UHGV virus genome: UHGV-1964037
Reading direction: 5' to 3' (one strand)
From: a virus
Length of the DNA: 14,733 nt
Numbering within the stretch: position 1 is the stretch's first letter; each line of letters opens with the position of its first letter. Shown here one piece after another: positions 665 to 11,944 of the stretch. The position numbers and the translations under genes are program-made. The notes beneath the pieces are model-generated. The model did no database searches. It was not told the origin of the DNA and was given only the letters and a program-made list of their open reading frames with translations.

Positions 665-1198
665 TTATCTGTCAATTCCCCAGCACGCCAGCGCACTCTC
701 CTGGTCGCGACGGGATACCTGACCGTAACAGTTGTTTGAGCGAATACGGCAGTCTCTGCCACCGTCCTTAATCCACCAGCGAATCGCCTCACACGCCCCC
801 CTGCGATCGCCTGCATTAATTCGTTTATAAAACGTCGACGGGAAACACTTACCGGGGCCAATGTTGTACGGACAGAATGACGCGATCCCCGCTTTCTGGG
901 GTTCGGTCAGTGGCACTCTGATGTTTTTCTCCACCCATGCCAGCGCCTTATCACGCTCAATGGCGTTAACCTGGTCGCATTTTTCCTTCGACAACTTCAT
1001 GCCCGGGACGACAGGTTTGCCATCCACCATGATGGCACCACGGCAGATGGTCCAGATCCCCGCACCATCACGGTATGCCGTGGTGTGGTTACCTTCTTTT
1101 TCGTCAAGAAACTGGTCGATGATTTCAGGCGCAGAAGCACCTGCCGCAATCAGCGCCAGAACGGCTACCGATAAACCATAGTGGAGTTTCTGAGTCAC
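665..1198 (-). CDS. R: SAR endolysin (phage lysozyme, T4-lysozyme/GH24-like fold)
   Basis: 177-aa product with a hydrophobic N-terminal segment LSVAVLALIAAGASA (signal-arrest-release type) followed by the E..D..T catalytic arrangement (EGNHTTAYRDGAGIWTICRG) typical of lambdoid lysozymes. GTG start 2 nt after the holin stop with GGGAGAG upstream. Position S-R-Rz. Confidence 0.85.
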   Translation of the reverse strand: MTQKLHYGLSVAVLALIAAGASAPEIIDQFLDEKEGNHTTAYRDGAGIWTICRGAIMVDGKPVVPGMKLSKEKCDQVNAIERDKALAWVEKNIRVPLTEPQKAGIASFCPYNIGPGKCFPSTFYKRINAGDRRGACEAIRWWIKDGGRDCRIRSNNCYGQVSRRDQESALACWGIDR

Positions 1199-1202
1199 CT
1201 AA

Positions 1203-1418
1203 TCACTCTCCCCGGGCAGCCTTGCGACGGTCCTCTTTAATTTTGAAATACAGATTCGTCAGGTATGTCAGGAACCCCAGACACAGGCTCCCCAAAACCC
1301 CGATAGCAGCCCACTGTGACGGAGTAACCTGATCCAACCACTGTAGAAACCAGTAACCCGCACTGCCCGCAGAAGTACCATAGGCTATGCCCGTTGATAT
1401 TTTTTCCATCTGATACAT
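1203..1418 (-). CDS. S: class II holin (phage 21 S-like pinholin) with a dual-start motif
   Basis: 71-aa product [71 protein letters not shown] is near-identical in pattern to the phage 21 S holin as I recall it. Two in-frame starts (M1 and M4) suggest an antiholin/holin pair. GGGGCGGGG RBS. Confidence 0.85.
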
Positions 1419-1494: not shown

Positions 1495-1785
1495 TTACAG
1501 CATTGTGCCCGGTTCGGGTTGTGTGTCTGTCATATCCGTCACCGGTGACTCCGGCTGAATATCACCATTTTCCGTGGTGACATCTTCCGCCTGTGGTTCC
1601 GGAAGCAGTTCCGGGGATGGTTCCGGCTGTGCACCAAGCAATTCATCCAGAATGGCATCCACTTCTGCATCAAGACGCGCCTCAAGGTTCTGCCGAAGTT
1701 GCTGTTTCAGTGCACTCCGGACTTCTTCAGAGCGCAGGACTTCCTTCACTGCCTCAGCAGTGACCAGCGATTTTATTTCTGACAT
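1495..1785 (-). CDS. hypothetical acidic protein, 96 aa
   Basis: ORF MSEIKSLVTAEAVKEVLRSEEVRSALKQQLRQNLEARLDAEVDAILDELLGAQPEPSPELLPEPQAED... Helical N-terminal half, Pro/Glu-rich tail. Weak RBS (GAGAAA). Sits between the esterase gene and the holin. Confidence 0.45.
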   Translation of the reverse strand: MSEIKSLVTAEAVKEVLRSEEVRSALKQQLRQNLEARLDAEVDAILDELLGAQPEPSPELLPEPQAEDVTTENGDIQPESPVTDMTDTQPEPGTML

Positions 1786-1810: not shown

Positions 1811-2005
1811 TTAAGAAGGTTGTTCCGGAATGAGTGGGGCTTCTGTTTTTGCTCCGGCTGACTGACTGGCGCTTATTTTCTCTGCGGCCCTTTTATCAAT
1901 CTGCCTGCGCCAGAAATCGCGCACTGCCCTGTACCCACCCGAAAGAAGATACAGCACACAGACCGCCGTACAGAAGTACAGCATCACCTGATGAACAAAT
2001 GTCAT
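1811..2005 (-). CDS. hypothetical small membrane protein, 64 aa
   Basis: ORF MTFVHQVMLYFCTAVCVLYLLSGGYRAVRDFWRRQIDKRAAEKISASQSAGAKTEAPLIPEQPS with one N-terminal transmembrane segment. Weak RBS. Confidence 0.35.
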   Translation of the reverse strand: MTFVHQVMLYFCTAVCVLYLLSGGYRAVRDFWRRQIDKRAAEKISASQSAGAKTEAPLIPEQPS

Positions 2006-2143: not shown

Positions 2144-4073
2144 TTATGATGATGCCCGGCTTTCGTTAACTTTGACTGTGACCGTATCAAGCAGTACCGG
2201 ATACGTCGCTTTTGCCCCCGTGATATCTGTCAGCGTCAGCGTATCTGCTGTAAAGCCATCATTTGTCCACATCACCAGGTCAAACGCAGACTGCTCTGCA
2301 TCATCAATCACCGGCACCACTTTTTCGCTGTTATTTCCCGCAAAGCGGAAAACAACTGTATGCCAGTTATGGTCAAATGCCCCAAATGTGCCCAGTTGCG
2401 CATTCGACTCCCCCTTGTGGTACATCAGATTCAGATTTGATGCATCCGTCTGAAGGAAGAAGGACGCCAGCATGCTGTTTGCTGTCGCGCCTGACGCCCA
2501 CTGCGACACCGGCCAGTACAGACCAAAGACAAACTGACCGTTAACCAGTTCGACACCCTCCGGGATCTTAAACCGCACGGCAATTTCACCTCCCTTACTG
2601 AGAAGATTTTTTGCCTCCTCCACCGCAACAGTACGGAACATCTTCCAGGAGGTCAGTTTACCCGGCTGTTTTTCCAGTCGCAGCGCCTTCCTGCCACTGT
2701 CATCCGTCACAGTGCCTTTACCACCGGACGCATTCCACTGCTGCTCTGTCCATACACCACTGCCACTGTTCGCATCATATCCGGCCACCATTCTTGTTAC
2801 GGCTTCAGTATGACCGCCTGCAGAAGTACCTGCACCCTGCTGTTGCGTCGGACCCGCAGAGCCAGACTGTGCATCCCCCGTGGAGGCTGGCGTGGTCGCC
2901 AGCGGTGCAGACTGCCCGCTCAGGAACGGCAGCAAACGCCCGGCTCGCACCAGTATCTCTCCTGCCAGCCGATCTGAAACAATGCCTCTTCGCGCCCAGG
3001 AGCTGAAGTGCGTTTTACGATCGGCTGTCGTCCAGTTACCATTACTGCGTGACGCGGCACCATAGTATCCCGCCGTGATAATGTCCGGATCTTCTGACGG
3101 CTCGTTTGTCGGCACATTCGCACCATGCTCATCCGTCATCAACGGCACAAAGTGAATATTCTGCGCCGCCTTGCCTTTATAGCCTCCGTAAACCGCCTCA
3201 TACTGCACTGCATACTTCGCCTTCCAGTCGTACGTGGTGTCACCGCAAATCCACGGGACGCCGGACGTTGTCCCGCCAATACACTGGTCTGCAATATCTG
3301 CCAGGTCTGCACGGTATTTATTTACCATGGCAAGAAAAAGTGCATTGTGCTCTGCATGTCTCCCCGAACTGACATCTTTTTCCCCCTGCATCCAGATCAC
3401 CGACAACAGCACGTTTTTCGGATTTTTCTTCAGGGCTGCACGCGTTCTGCTGACCAGGTCACGATACAACGGTTTATCCACCCCCCACAGGGAAGAGCCC
3501 GCTGTCGCACCCGACGCCTCATTAAACGCGCCCTCTGCTCCCGCAGTAAATCCCGAATCGCCACGTCCACACGGGACAAGAAGGATCCCCGCACGGGCAG
3601 GCATAAACGGCAGCAGTTTTTTGGCCACATGCAGGGCATGCCCCACACAGCCATACTGCCCTTTATTGAGGTCTGCTTTCGGGTGATTCAGATTACTCAC
3701 GTCCTGCACATCATGCAGACAATGGTCTGCAGGAATAATGTCGTTATATGCACAGGCCGCACCGCCCGGTGTCACCGTGCTGCGACGCGCCAGTTGCTTA
3801 ATACGCGGGTCAGGACGATCATACGTATCCGGCAGCGGCAGGCCCCCCCCCAAAAAAAACCAGGTGGGATGGCCCGCCACCATCACCCGACGGTTGCACC
3901 ACCACCGGTGTGGTGACATCACCTTCCGCCGCAATGGCCTGCATCAGGGTATAGGGCGTGATGGCCACCGGACTGCCAAATGGCTGCCACCCCTCCTTCA
4001 GTTTTTGAGTCAGTCGCTCCGCAAGGTCTGACGGCGACGCCGCCCTGACCACGTCATAGTGTTTAAATGCCAT
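2144..4073 (-). pseudogene. nanS-p-like prophage esterase (DUF1737-like N-terminus plus SGNH/SASA-type esterase domain), frameshifted at a homopolymer tract
   Basis: ATG at 4071-4073 with GGGAGG RBS opens an 84-codon frame (MAFKHYDVVRAASPSDLAERLTQKLKEGWQPFGSPV...) that stops at 3819. A second frame continues from the same tract for 596 codons to 2144 and contains GRGDSGF and other esterase-like blocks. The two frames overlap at the C9/A8 run 3843-3859; removing one base joins them into about 642 codons. Size and placement (between Q and S) match nanS-p genes of Stx and Stx-like phages. Family assignment is from memory, not a search. Confidence 0.55.
3843..3859. repeat. adjacent homopolymers C9 and A8 (coding strand T8 G9) at the frameshift site
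   Basis: Plus-strand cccccccccaaaaaaaa at 3843-3859, read directly from the sequence. Confidence 0.95.
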
Positions 4074-4267
4074 GAATCCTCCCGGTCGGGATAATGTTGT
4101 GAGTCAGATGAGGGAACGGGCTGAAGTCCGGAAGTTACAGGACAATGGCAGGAGGAAGACTACAGCCCGCAATACGAAAAAGGCCGCGCTATTGCGCAGA
4201 GTGATTACTGTCGGATATTATTCGCCAGCTGAAATATTACTTCACGTTTTGTTGTTTATTCCTTGCC

Positions 4268-4296
4268 GCCCGCGTCTCCCAGCGCGGGCTTTTTTT
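4268..4296 (+). terminator. terminator-like hairpin plus T7 run on the plus strand, followed by a second GC hairpin (4308-4327)
   Basis: Stem GCCCGCG / CGCGGGC with loop TCTCCCAG, then TTTTTTT. Downstream AGCCCCTC-CGGA-GAGGGGCT hairpin. No U-run follows either hairpin in minus sense. Confidence 0.45.
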
Positions 4297-4353
4297 GTCC
4301 ATAAGAAAGCCCCTCCGGAGAGGGGCTGGAGAGTGGCGCTATGTGCCATTGCA

Positions 4354-4375
4354 TGGTGCCGGGTGCCTCCCGGTG
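4354..4375. repeat. 22-bp element TGGTGCCGGGTGCCTCCCGGTG, with an exact reverse-complement copy at 14559-14580
   Basis: Exact 22/22 match in inverted orientation about 10.2 kb away. The minus-sense reading CACCGGGAGGCACCCGGCACCA holds three GGCACC hexamers and a CCGGG/CCCGG hairpin. Confidence 0.9.
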
Positions 4376-4644
4376 AGTTCAGTATCAGCACCTGAACCCG
4401 CACAGAAAGGATAAGGGTCGGTGACAAAACACCAGTTGCTGATTGCCCCTCCGCACAGGGGGATTCACCATGCCAGTTTCTTTTAACAAACTCCCCGCAA
4501 ACCAGACAACAGTCAACCGCCTGAATTGTGAGGTATTTAAAAATTTCAACGGGTAACTGATACCCTGCTAATCGCCTGATGCTTTCTTTTTCAGCAACGG
4601 GGAAGCAACAACCACCACACCCACCAGCCGCCCATTTACCACAA

Positions 4645-4670
4645 ATAAAAAAGCCTTCACTGCGGAAGGC
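4645..4670 (-). terminator. rho-independent terminator on the minus strand
   Basis: Plus-strand A-run 4645-4652, then GCCTTC-ACTGCG-GAAGGC hairpin (4653-4670). Overlaps the stop codon of the 65-aa ORF. Confidence 0.5.
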
Positions 4671-4853
4671 GTCTGTAACAACCGAACTGATAGTCTGCCA
4701 GACCCGCCATAACCAGCTGGGTCAGTATTAACTGGCAGCGTTCGCGTGAAAGGTAAGTATTCTGCGCTATCTCCCCGACTGTCGCCGGTTCGGTAACGCT
4801 TAATTCATTAAACACCACTCTGGCGGTTTCTGTCATATCCTGCTGTTTTAGCA
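4657..4853 (-). CDS. hypothetical small protein, 65 aa, possibly HTH-like
   Basis: ATG at 4851-4853 with AAGGGA RBS. Product MLKQQDMTETARVVFNELSVTEPATVGEIAQNTYLSRERCQLILTQLVMAGLADYQFGCYRRLPQ. Bracketed by minus-strand terminators on both sides, so it could instead be part of a late leader transcript. Confidence 0.4.
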
Positions 4854-4973
4854 TGTCTTTTTCCCTTTTCCGGTTAACGTGACATACCAATAACTCTTGT
4901 CTAAAAAGCCAGCAAGCTGAAAGACAGGTATTCACCACCAGCACGTTTACTGTACTGATGCGATTTCAGTCAT

Positions 4974-4995
4974 AAAAAACCCGCCAGGCGGCGGG
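4974..4995 (-). terminator. rho-independent terminator on the minus strand, about 60 nt downstream of Q (candidate tR'-like element)
   Basis: Plus-strand A-run 4974-4979, then CCCGCC-AGGC-GGCGGG hairpin (4980-4995). In minus sense the hairpin is followed by UUUUUUAU. Confidence 0.5.
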
Positions 4996-5055
4996 TTTAA
5001 GTTGTGTGGCGTAGTAACCACTCTTAACATACTGACATACTTTTTGCGGACCGCG

Positions 5056-5448
5056 CTAATCATTTTTTACTTTTTTGGGCAGCCAGTCGTCCATCTCCAG
5101 CCTTACACCCAGCATCGACAGACATCCGTCAATAAATCCTTCAGCAATCTGCATCTCAATTCGTATTGCCTTTTCGCTCTTCTTTCTTGTTCTGGCAATC
5201 TGCCTTTTTGATATGCGCAGCAGATAATGAGCTACCAGCAGCGAATACTCGTCCGGTTTTTTCTTCTTCAGGCGCGTAAGGCAGTTTTCGATGATAAGGC
5301 CGTCATCATCGCTGCAGGCCGGGCGAGGTTTAGCGGTGGATGGTAAAAGGCCTTTAAATCCAGCAGCTATCGGAGAATAGTCCACCCCGGTGTTACCACT
5401 TGCCGCCCATGCCCCCCAGCGTTCAAGAACCATCTGAATATCACGCAT
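5056..5448 (-). CDS. Q: late-gene antiterminator Q (Phage_antitermQ family, QuuD-like)
   Basis: ATG at 5446-5448 with GGAG RBS. Product MRDIQMVLERWGAWAASGNTGVDYSPIAAGFKGLLP...RLKKKKPDEYSLLVAHYLL...GVRLEMDDW matches the short E. coli prophage Q family (N-terminal MRDIQMVLERWGAWAA, C-terminal RLEMD, from memory). Positioned upstream of the late/lysis genes. Confidence 0.8.
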   Translation of the reverse strand: MRDIQMVLERWGAWAASGNTGVDYSPIAAGFKGLLPSTAKPRPACSDDDGLIIENCLTRLKKKKPDEYSLLVAHYLLRISKRQIARTRKKSEKAIRIEMQIAEGFIDGCLSMLGVRLEMDDWLPKKVKND

Positions 5449-8808: not shown

Positions 8809-9296
8809 TAAGCCCCCACGTAATTCCCTGACAGATACCACTCATCACCCGCTACAGCGCGCTTTCTGCTTTTCCGTAAGCACCGCTCACGACGCGCCAG
8901 AAAATTGTTTCGTTCTGGCTGGGAGTGGCTTTCACGGAATGCCGCCATCCACACGGTTGCAGCACGACGGTATAAGCCCCTGGACTCCAGTTCTTCCGCC
9001 TGGCGGGTCAGGCACAAAATCACCCGGGGATCGTTAGTGCCGACATAGAAATTGCGCACAGGTATGGTTTCAAGAACAGGTTGCAGTTTCTCCTCCTGCG
9101 ATATCTCAGCCTGGTGTGGGAAATGTCTGCGTGTTTTCCCTTCACAACAGTGAGCCACACGGCCACTCTGACGTAACTTGCTTGCTGACTGCAGAACGCA
9201 CTGTCGTGAGTAACCAGCAAAAGCATCCGCAATGTCACCTGAAGTACACCCCGGATGGGCTTCAATGAATTTCTGTACATCGTTCATCAGACTCAT
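8808..9296 (-). CDS. PerC-like putative transcriptional regulator, 162 aa, with an N-terminal extension
   Basis: C-terminal half AEELESRGLYRRAATVWMAAFRES...RRERCLRKSRK matches my recollection of the PerC/Pch motif (LE..GLWRRAA..W......R..CLRKSR). ATG at 9294-9296 with GGGGGTG RBS, 2 nt after the upstream stop. Confidence 0.45.
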   Translation of the reverse strand: MSLMNDVQKFIEAHPGCTSGDIADAFAGYSRQCVLQSASKLRQSGRVAHCCEGKTRRHFPHQAEISQEEKLQPVLETIPVRNFYVGTNDPRVILCLTRQAEELESRGLYRRAATVWMAAFRESHSQPERNNFLARRERCLRKSRKRAVAGDEWYLSGNYVGA

Positions 9297-9298
9297 GA

Positions 9299-10282
9299 TC
9301 ACCCCCTGAATCCTGTCGGGATCTGGCTGTAGTCCACGTTGTCGTAACTGGCTTTGAAGTACGGGTCCTCGCGTCTGGCTGCAGATACCGCAGGAACTTC
9401 CCAGGATTCTTCGAAATGACGATCCGGACCAAAGAACGTCGACGCCTGCTTCACGAACTGGGTACAGGTATTTCCAGAGACACGCACCCAGGCGGCATAG
9501 CGTTTCACACCGTCGAGCATGGTTTCAGGTGTCACACCTTCCCTGATTCGGGCTTTCCAGGCTTTAAAAGCGGCGGATTTTGAATTACCACCAGCACGTT
9601 TGGGATATTCCTGCCAGGCCTGTTCAAATTCCGGTGAATATTCCTGTCGGGCAGAACGCGCTGGTGCAGACGCGTCAGCGGATGCGCCAATAGTGTTTTT
9701 AGTCTCCGTTGTAATCTCTGTAGTAATCTCTGTATTTGTATCAACATTCGGCGTATCCCCTGTTCCGTTACGACGTCGGGGGGTGTTCCGTTTTAACGTA
9801 ATAGCTGTATCGCTGATTGCATTATTGCTGTTACTTTCTGGCGAAACAGAAGAAGGTGTGGTGATGGCCGCAATTGCCTGTGGGTTGATCCCGACAAACA
9901 AAATATTGCTACATTTCACCCCATCGAGCATTTCCACCGTGCGTAAATCCAGAGTAATAAACCCGGCATCACGGAGACGCTTCAGCGCATCTGCGGTTTC
10001 CCTTTTCCCGAAACCAAACTGCTCAGCAAACGCCTGGTAGCTTCTTTGCAGTTTGTCGCCCTGAAAACGCTTGCGATATCCCAGCAACGCTCCGGTGTGC
10101 TCATCCCTGACCTCTGTCGGGCGGTACCAGTAAACGATCTCTGAAAGCAGAGCGATAGCCGTCGCATCCGGACGCCCACTGGGTAGTCGAATATATTTCC
10201 ACCAGGTCGCAGGTGTAACATTGCCGGAAATATTAATTTGACCAATAGCCATAACTTCCGGTGTGGGGGCGTAACGGCTCAT
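9299..10282 (-). CDS. putative replication initiation protein (lambda O-like role) with an internal low-complexity linker
   Basis: 327-aa product. N-terminal helical domain (LSEIVYWYRP...LKRLRDAGFITLD), Thr/Ser/Asn-rich linker containing TEITTEITTE, C-terminal domain (EFEQAWQEYPKR...AFKAWKARIREGVTP...). It sits where O sits in lambdoid early operons. The coding sequence contains direct repeats like the O-embedded lambda ori. Family assignment is tentative. Confidence 0.5.
   Translation of the reverse strand: MSRYAPTPEVMAIGQINISGNVTPATWWKYIRLPSGRPDATAIALLSEIVYWYRPTEVRDEHTGALLGYRKRFQGDKLQRSYQAFAEQFGFGKRETADALKRLRDAGFITLDLRTVEMLDGVKCSNILFVGINPQAIAAITTPSSVSPESNSNNAISDTAITLKRNTPRRRNGTGDTPNVDTNTEITTEITTETKNTIGASADASAPARSARQEYSPEFEQAWQEYPKRAGGNSKSAAFKAWKARIREGVTPETMLDGVKRYAAWVRVSGNTCTQFVKQASTFFGPDRHFEESWEVPAVSAARREDPYFKASYDNVDYSQIPTGFRG
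9711..9734. repeat. perfect 12-bp tandem duplication GTAATCTCTGTA x2 inside the O-like gene, with flanking 9-bp direct repeats TGTTCCGTT (9761-9769 and 9784-9792)
   Basis: Read directly from the sequence. The repeats lie in the linker-encoding part of the gene and are followed by an AT-rich stretch (9793-9840). Confidence 0.85.
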
Positions 10283-10578: not shown

Positions 10579-10799
10579 GCCACACCTCCCAGACGCTTAA
10601 ACATTTTTCCGGAGCAAAAGGCTATAAGCGGCATACTGACGCGGTAATTACGGCCCAGCGGTTCACAAATCACCTTCTGACATTCACGGTCAACCAGGCT
10701 AACACGTAGAACATGCCCTGCAGGCGTGGTGTACCACTGACCCGGACGAGGACAACGGAAAGTATGATTGGTAAACCGTTTGAAAATATTCCGGATCAT
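10575..10799 (-). CDS. hypothetical Cys-containing small protein, 74 aa
   Basis: ATG overlaps the Rha-domain gene stop (ATGA). Product MIRNIFKRFTNHTFRCPRPGQWYTTPAGHVLRVSLVDRECQKVICEPLGRNYRVSMPLIAFCSGKMFKRLGGVA has 4 Cys (possible metal-binding). Confidence 0.4.
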   Translation of the reverse strand: MIRNIFKRFTNHTFRCPRPGQWYTTPAGHVLRVSLVDRECQKVICEPLGRNYRVSMPLIAFCSGKMFKRLGGVA

Positions 10800-11944
10800 T
10801 TGCGCCCCCTTACCTCTGAAGGGTTCAGCGACAAATTTATGAGACTGGCCAGTAGCGCCGCGTCGTTGATGCGGTCATACAGACTTACAGCCAGCGGGGA
10901 TTCGGCTTTTGCCAACATGGGATAAAGCTGCTGCAGCCAGACCTTGTGGATTACCGACAGGTGGGAGTAAAGCACGCTGGCGTTATCTGCGGCATCGCTC
11001 AGCGTGGATGGCTTTGAAAGCAGTTTTTCCATCTGGTTAAAGGCATTGATGTATGCCTCTTTGAACTGGGCAGCACGTTTACCCGTGAAACCCATAGCAA
11101 GAAACGCAAAGCCGTCGCGGGTTATTTGATAGCAAGGTAGTTTGCGGCCTGTGCAATCGGTGTAATCACTCACCGAAAAATTGCGGGCAGTGAATGATGC
11201 GGAACATTCAAGCGTGCGGATCTTTTTCAGTACATCGTCATGACGTTTGGAGAAGAAGTTGGCAACAGCCAGGGATGAAGTAACAGCCTGACCATCAACG
11301 ATGGCAATTTCAGGTTGAGTGAGGGTTGGGATCGTAGCCATGATGGCAGCCTCCGTATGCAATGGATAACTTCCACCACCGGAAACGCCAATTTCGCTGG
11401 TGGTGAACTGAGCAGGGTTGGCGTAACCGGCGCATACGGAAACCGGCGCACCTTTCGGTGCCCCCACCCAGCCCACCATAATTTGGGTATAGCTGAGTTG
11501 TAGCAACAAAAAAGACGCTAACGCGCCAATTGTCGCCGTATGCAATTCCAGGACGCCAATCCCGACACCCGCTTTATAAGGTGCCTGAACAGTGTAACGT
11601 CCCGGAATGGCAGAATCAATGTGCTGGTGGTCCTTCACACTCAACAAAATCACGCCTGAATTTCCACAAAGGACTAAAGCACTCATGCTGGTAGTCTTTG
11701 CGAAGATAGATAACGCGCTGTGTTTCTGGCTCCCAACGAATAACATGAACATAAAGTCCTCTTCCGTCACGAAACCAGCGGTTAAGTTCCTGCACAACTC
11801 GCCCCCCACAGTCAGGTAAAGTTCTCTGTGGTTACTTACAGCCAGGTGATTTGGTAATCTGCATTCATGCCGTAACAACAGGTGTTCAGCGACGCTGACC
11901 ACCAGCTGTTGCGACAAACGGTTATTTGCCGTTAAACTATTCAT
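10796..11944 (-). CDS. Rha-domain phage regulatory protein with about 200-aa in-frame N-terminal extension of unknown function
   Basis: C-terminal 181 aa (from ATG 11339-11341, preceded by GGAGG) MATIPTLTQPEIAIVDGQAVTSSLAVANFFSKRHDDVLKKIRTLE...ITRDGFAFLAMGFTGKRAAQFKEAYINAFNQME is a clear Rha (Phage_pRha) domain. The frame stays open for a further 201 codons upstream to an ATG at 11942-11944 that overlaps the CII-like stop (ATGA). A 600-nt open frame by chance is unlikely, so the long form is annotated; the true start is uncertain. Confidence 0.5.
   Translation of the reverse strand: MNSLTANNRLSQQLVVSVAEHLLLRHECRLPNHLAVSNHRELYLTVGGELCRNLTAGFVTEEDFMFMLFVGSQKHSALSIFAKTTSMSALVLCGNSGVILLSVKDHQHIDSAIPGRYTVQAPYKAGVGIGVLELHTATIGALASFLLLQLSYTQIMVGWVGAPKGAPVSVCAGYANPAQFTTSEIGVSGGGSYPLHTEAAIMATIPTLTQPEIAIVDGQAVTSSLAVANFFSKRHDDVLKKIRTLECSASFTARNFSVSDYTDCTGRKLPCYQITRDGFAFLAMGFTGKRAAQFKEAYINAFNQMEKLLSKPSTLSDAADNASVLYSHLSVIHKVWLQQLYPMLAKAESPLAVSLYDRINDAALLASLINLSLNPSEVRGRK

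Follow-up and report, generated by a model that had tools for sequence, protein, structure and literature searches.

Does a double homopolymer near the 5′ end of a prophage esterase gene mark a molecular switch, a dead gene or a fault in the deposited sequence? The question arises in the viral genome UHGV-1964037, of which we analysed a stretch of 14,733 nt (referred to in its entirety as the window). On the minus strand, which is coding here, eight T are followed directly by nine G, corresponding on the plus strand to C9 (3843-3851) and then A8 (3852-3859). The initial annotation had described a nanS-p-like esterase gene interrupted at this point by a +1 frameshift, and had listed a sequencing error, a true pseudogene, phase variation and transcriptional slippage as possible causes. 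The observations on which it was built stand: the T8-G9 tract can be read directly from the sequence, the 84-codon and 596-codon open reading frames (ORFs) overlap at 3819-3934 with the tract inside the overlap, and the second frame is displaced by +1 nt from the first (Table 1). The 84-codon ORF has a good Shine-Dalgarno sequence, GGAGG, 5 nt ahead of its ATG. The tract is not a chance occurrence, because by our own estimate random sequence as long as the window would contain adjacent runs of eight and nine about 1e-5 times; the longest other homopolymer in the 14.7-kb window is at most 7 nt.

Table 1 Features of the split esterase gene and of its late-operon surroundings
Feature	Position	Strand	Basis and remarks
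T8-G9 double homopolymer (C9-A8 on +)	3843..3859	-	Read directly; homologs have ATGTCTTTTGGCGAGGGG instead
84-codon ORF	3819..4073	-	DUF1737 complete at residues 3-50 (PF08410, E = 4e-17), then linker and out-of-frame tail from about residue 66
596-codon ORF	2144..3934	-	Remainder of SASA (PF03629) and C-terminal lectin-like DUF6645 (PF20350); lacks Block I
Garbled patch, 13 substitutions in 34 nt	3842..3875	-	Each substitution copies a neighbouring base; homologs encode Block I AGQSNSMSFGEG here
53-nt deletion junction (54 nt in an alternative register)	3875..3876	-	Alignments; lost codons AVISTTSEPEYYFVIALA; 4-nt TGGC microhomology at both ends
Two GGC triplets	3831-3833, 3837-3839	+	Immediately upstream of the first changed base, 3842
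Q-family antiterminator gene	5095..5448	-	Upstream; mapped from L006 and L007 annotation
DUF1378	1811-2005	-	ORF and homolog annotation; downstream late gene
DUF826	1495-1785	-	ORF and homolog annotation; downstream late gene
Class II holin	1203-1418	-	ORF and homolog annotation; downstream late gene
Lysozyme	665-1198	-	ORF and homolog annotation; downstream late gene

Judged from its sequence, the split gene is nanS-p, a well-described prophage sialate O-acetylesterase (PMC10462455, PMC8319020), carried by a lambdoid prophage, in agreement with the esterase assignment of the initial annotation. This identification follows from its domains, its structural matches and its place in the genome. 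The order DUF1737 - SASA - DUF6645 is present, but divided between two frames; the esterase domain of an intact relative matches E. coli NanS (3PT5) with E = 1e-111, the C-terminal domain matches NanS-p (PDB 6YP6), and the gene lies between Q and a DUF1378/DUF826/holin/lysozyme cassette. A late-operon location between Q and the lysis genes is that of NanS-p, and no large gene precedes nanS-p in the late operon here.

The surroundings of the gene show some variation among relatives. The spacer between Q and nanS-p (4074-5095) is short and free of tRNA genes, none being found by ARAGORN anywhere in the window, while the same spacer in close relatives carries tRNA-Ile/Arg/Arg and a DNA methyltransferase or its remnant, and in some of them OmpC, TerB or a nuclease with a cytosine methyltransferase. 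Back-to-back terminator-like hairpins (4268-4289 on the plus strand and 4327-4308 on the minus strand) lie between nanS-p and the upstream small ORFs, and may represent the tR′ region of the late operon. Holin is followed directly by lysozyme, as it is, with 100% identity, in strains G1/2, EC2 and others, while in several relatives the two are separated by a truncated YdfR/DUF1327 pseudogene.

Comparison with homologs redefines the lesion. The closest alleles are those of E. coli STEC17-183 (NZ_CP075652) and of phage PhiR12_1, each encoding one 660-aa protein. In an alignment to STEC17-183 spanning the whole gene and its flanks (about 2.3 kb, the gene itself being 1.9 kb), the gene differed only by a gap of 53 nt at 3875/3876, by 12-13 substitutions clustered in 3842-3875 and by a single base at 2299. 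Between GGTGATGGTGGCG and CTGCCGCTGCC homologs carry 85 nt, CTGTTATCAGCACCACCAGCGAACCGGAATATTACTTTGTCATTGCGCTGGCCGGGCAGTCCAACTCGATGTCTTTTGGCGAGGGG, whereas the window has only 32 nt, GGCCATCCCACCTGGTTTTTTTTGGGGGGGGGC. None of the homologs has the tract and there is no homopolymer longer than 4 nt at this place in the nearest relatives; T8 arose from ATGTCTTTT and G9 from GGCGAGGGG, in both cases by substitution. The change of frame is thus due to a net loss of 53 nt and not to one base added to an older homopolymer. The +1 slip within an existing homopolymer, as first proposed, does not survive this comparison, since relatives carry neither T7G9 nor T8G8 and the change amounts to minus 53 nt with 13 clustered substitutions. 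A comparison of tract length with intact homologs, which had been suggested as a check, found a single 660-codon gene and no tract whose length could be compared. A chimera between paralogs was also considered and rejected, both flanks being 100% identical to the same allele and the patch being unlike the alleles of 77% identity.

These alignments bear directly on the simplest technical explanation, a miscall of homopolymer length, under which the organism would have T7G9 or T8G8 and an intact gene of 642 codons. Some sequencing technologies do often miscount homopolymers; however no relative combines a 642-codon gene with the tract, the nearest having 660 codons, and correction by one base leaves a 54-nt loss and 11 substitutions unexplained. 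We therefore consider a simple miscount to be scarcely credible.

The stretch that is lost or altered encodes AVISTTSEPEYYFVIALAGQSNSMSFGEG, which comprises the first β-strand of the SGNH/SASA fold and, after it, Block I GQSN. With the Block I motif defined as in PMC10792757 and PMC9487903, homologs read YYFVIALAGQSNSM at this position while the window is without the strand and reads GPSH in the upstream frame or GHPT in the downstream frame. Blocks II, III and V are present as RGDSGF, WMQGEKD and THFSS in an alignment to 3PT5 (RGxS, MQGE and HFS, the last with the catalytic His). Removal of a single T or G does produce one 642-codon ORF, as had been anticipated, but the gene is not restored with it: the joined product reads GDGGGPSHLVF(F/L)GGGLPLP, is 18 residues shorter than the 660-codon homologs and has GPSH in place of GQSN, and an intact catalytic block is absent from every frame. 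In SASA enzymes the Gln beside the catalytic Ser forms the unusual oxyanion hole, and activity is lost when these residues are changed (PMC9487903). The window gene, its Block I being destroyed, would not be expected to act on 9-O-acetylated sialic acid.

The state of Block I in both frames weighs heavily against the reading of T8-G9 as a contingency tract, or as a site of transcriptional or translational slippage, by which full-length NanS-p would be turned on and off. In principle, long homopolymers lying side by side at the 5′ end of a coding sequence are mutable, and the two ORFs do join on the loss of one base. The tract is however unique to the window sequence and found in no homolog, the intact ones encoding SASA Block I in its place; the joined ORF is without the 18 residues preceding Block I; and no variants of tract length were seen in any collection searched. 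As no frame yields an intact catalytic block an ON/OFF switch loses its rationale, and we regard both phase variation and slippage, two of the causes first listed, as highly improbable here.

What distinguishes the patch is the identity of its substituted bases. When the sequences were aligned without gaps from an anchor on the downstream side, all 13 of the 13 changed bases equalled the preceding base of the plus strand, i.e. the 3′ neighbour on the coding strand, while among natural substitutions between the window and its relatives outside the patch 193 of 856 (22.5%) do so (P ~ 4e-9). Every base of the patch corresponds to the homolog base in register 0 or +1 and never to a third base, which is a mixed-phase signal. 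The run is 34 nt long and begins on the plus strand at 3842, 3 nt past two GGC triplets. Nakamura et al. 2011 (PMC3141275) described sequence-specific lagging dephasing in Illumina sequencing, set off by inverted repeats or by a GGC no more than about 10 nt upstream, and the patch shares with such errors an upstream GGC within 10 nt, a miscall equal to the preceding base, a stretch of less than 40 nt and a strand-directional character. Folding of the intact 141-nt region gave no significantly stable hairpin (z = -1.44), and a hairpin-driven deletion was rejected on this basis. Mutagenesis of the type produced by diversity-generating retroelements (DGR) was discarded as the substitutions are not adenine-specific, and the vicinity of the patch, searched for quasi-palindromes and for donors of a template switch, contained just trivial repeats of 10-13 nt.

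The patch appears to be confined to this one sequence. Of 5,426 complete E. coli genomes 1,296 gave matches, all without the patch, the best places all spanning 484 nt against 431 nt in the window, and the 314 matching phage records were without it too. Pattern scans of viral, genome and metagenome contigs returned no exact match to the junction GATGGTGGCGGGCCATCCCACCTGG, and the patch core CCATCCCACCTGGTTTTTTT was not found in viral contigs. The core did match two genome contigs, one a Chitinophagales MAG and the other a Pseudomonadota MAG, neither of which was retained as a donor, about one chance match being expected for a 20-mer in 596 Gb. Exact-sequence look-up found no record of the 84-aa product, and a comparison with 5.8 billion proteins gave none sharing its out-of-frame tail.

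Known prophage modules make up the remainder of the window as a mosaic, in which most 200-nt tiles show no or few differences to one or another of nine relatives. Stretches that are diverged from or uncovered by these nine have 100% matches in other complete genomes with the exception of 9280-9720, which lies within an intact 327-aa hypothetical or replication-like gene and for which the best match in complete E. coli genomes is 98.2% (8 differences). All other genes in the window are intact and of the lengths seen in annotated homologs, and a generally poor assembly was rejected, the remaining sequence being base-perfect or nearly so against references. A 382-aa Rha-family ORF at 10796-11944 on the minus strand occurs likewise in EC2 and SW071611, the annotation of other relatives placing here a Rha protein of 296 aa and, overlapping with it, a DUF4222 ORF; 10780-11650 matches a second prophage of strain DETEC-S792 at 100%, indicating mosaic exchange.

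nanS-p is a multi-copy gene, the median being 3 places per genome. Among the 120 relatives listed for the 84-aa ORF, the majority carry the label partial and measure 47-147 aa, from which it follows that draft E. coli and Shigella contigs often end within the first ~150 codons of nanS-p. Contig ends inside the gene represent a repeat boundary, which fits a gene present in several copies.

Taken together we favour, with somewhat better than even confidence, a local base-calling or assembly artefact of the deposited sequence, restricted to 3842-3876 in an otherwise normal nanS-p, as the source of both the T8-G9 tract and the patch around it. We infer that plus-strand reads would lose phase just past the GGCAGCGGCAG motif, so that over the next 34 cycles the base-caller would report either the true base or the preceding one, a smearing that would turn CCCCTCGCC-AAAAGACAT into C9-A8. 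The dephased, low-quality end of such a read may then have been incorporated at a contig end and joined through the TGGC microhomology to sequence 53 nt further on. The join would fall at the place where short-read E. coli assemblies habitually break, as they do because nanS-p is multi-copy, and the net loss of 53 nt would split the gene into two ORFs. An artefact of this kind would account for the neighbour-copy pattern, the position of the patch after GGC, its shortness, the adjacent gap, its uniqueness and the habitual contig break, and the underlying gene would then probably be an intact 660-codon esterase like those of its near-identical relatives. Observed directly are the deletion, neighbour copying at 13 of 13 sites, a patch seen nowhere else and clean sequence around it, whereas both the join and the sequencing platform are inferred. 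Of the causes listed by the initial annotation sequencing error is thus preferred to true pseudogene, though not in the form of a one-base homopolymer miscount, as homologs differ by 53 nt and 13 substitutions.

Several considerations count against such an artefact. The consensus normally outvotes strand-specific dephasing errors, so that very low local coverage or a join at a contig end would be needed, and Illumina sequence-specific errors are known from individual reads and not from finished consensus. Nor could they alone give the 53-nt gap: dephasing leaves a clean gap unexplained, which is why a second step, the putative mis-join, has to be invoked. The base-perfect remainder of the window is likewise unlike what a generally poor assembly would give.

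The principal alternative is a genuine complex mutation, which we hold to be possible but distinctly less likely. A real 53-nt deletion at the TGGC microhomology would have been accompanied by a burst of dislocation-type substitutions during error-prone repair synthesis, the polymerase copying the next template base and then realigning, and would have left a nanS-p pseudogene, i.e. one inactivated copy among several redundant prophage esterase genes. The microhomology at the deletion ends and the high quality of the remaining window are in keeping with this, and with a median of 3 places per genome one copy is cheap to lose. Comparable lesions are found elsewhere. N-terminal fragments of nanS-p from other public assemblies (P0001, P0004, P0011 and P0022) are frameshifted in the same Block I region, and assemblies with such copies include complete genomes; P0022 comes from a 5.06-Mb contig, the tail of P0001 fits a change of T4 to T3 in the same TCTTTTGG and P0004 fits a deletion of ~10 nt after EPE. 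Phage records H51 and H54 carry nanS-p pseudogene annotations. A real lesion would thus not be exotic, since genuine frameshifted copies of nanS-p exist elsewhere, some in the same block, and the Block I region seems prone to either error or mutation.

A genuine mutation has however to accommodate 13 neighbour-copy substitutions in 34 nt, or ~38% of sites, a density which to our knowledge is orders of magnitude over any polymerase error rate, with only one further difference across the 1.9-kb gene. Neither an ectopic nor a quasi-palindromic template was found for the patch, and the patch occurs in no other genome among the 5,426 complete E. coli genomes and the contig collections searched. Under this alternative the 84-aa DUF1737 product could still be made, its domain being complete and preceded by a good Shine-Dalgarno sequence, while the esterase part would be untranslated or dead. 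In phi24B the DUF1737 domain decorates the capsid once cleaved from the esterase, and DUF1737 proteins are mostly single-domain (bioRxiv 10.64898/2026.04.10.717836). In its most far-reaching form, a single in-vivo event would have combined the 53-nt deletion with 13 copy-next-base misincorporations and created T8-G9 de novo as a hypermutable tract, which we think very unlikely. Were it true, a virion-associated esterase of three domains would have been reduced to a DUF1737 protein that decorates the capsid on its own, slippage of the tract might also yield a switchable lectin fusion with a dead esterase, and the locus would represent a striking footprint of clustered dislocation mutagenesis and a contingency tract in the course of being born.

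The T8-G9 feature is most likely not real and, if real, would be an unremarkable pseudogene, derived from a prophage gene that is both known and redundant, adding one more inactivated copy of a multi-copy family. The analysis is therefore of value mainly as quality control. A reader who accepted the tract as given would be tempted to see in it phase variation or programmed slippage of a gene linked to the ability of pathogenic E. coli to grow on mucin sialic acids, while comparison with relatives reveals no such switch. Asking whether each changed base equals its neighbour in the reference provides a cheap flag for artefacts, and could be applied to other matches from such scans for which reads are not available.

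Poly-G and poly-C tracts underlie phase-variable genes in Neisseria, Haemophilus and Campylobacter, and transcriptional slippage occurs at A or T runs of 9 or more. The window has in common with such contingency loci and slippage genes an extended run of one nucleotide close to the 5′ end of an ORF and two frames that are joined by a 1-nt change, but differs from them in that its tract is not conserved, shows no polymorphism among relatives and leaves the catalytic block broken even in the ON frame. With NanS-p of 933W and gp84/vb_24B_21 of phi24B (annotated as a SASA family carbohydrate esterase) the window gene shares the three-domain layout and the position between Q and holin/lysozyme, and outside the patch it differs from alleles of the WP_198800526 type at one base (2299); it departs from prophage NanS-p in being divided into two ORFs, in lacking the 18 codons before Block I and in the garbling of Block I itself. 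The chromosomal NanS (YjhS) of E. coli (3PT5), in which Block I is 17-GQSNA-21 with Ser19 as the nucleophile (PMC10792757), has neither DUF1737 nor DUF6645, whereas the window reads GPSH or GHPT at Block I depending on the frame; the two nonetheless share a homologous esterase core, of which Blocks II, III and V are kept in the 596-aa ORF of the window.
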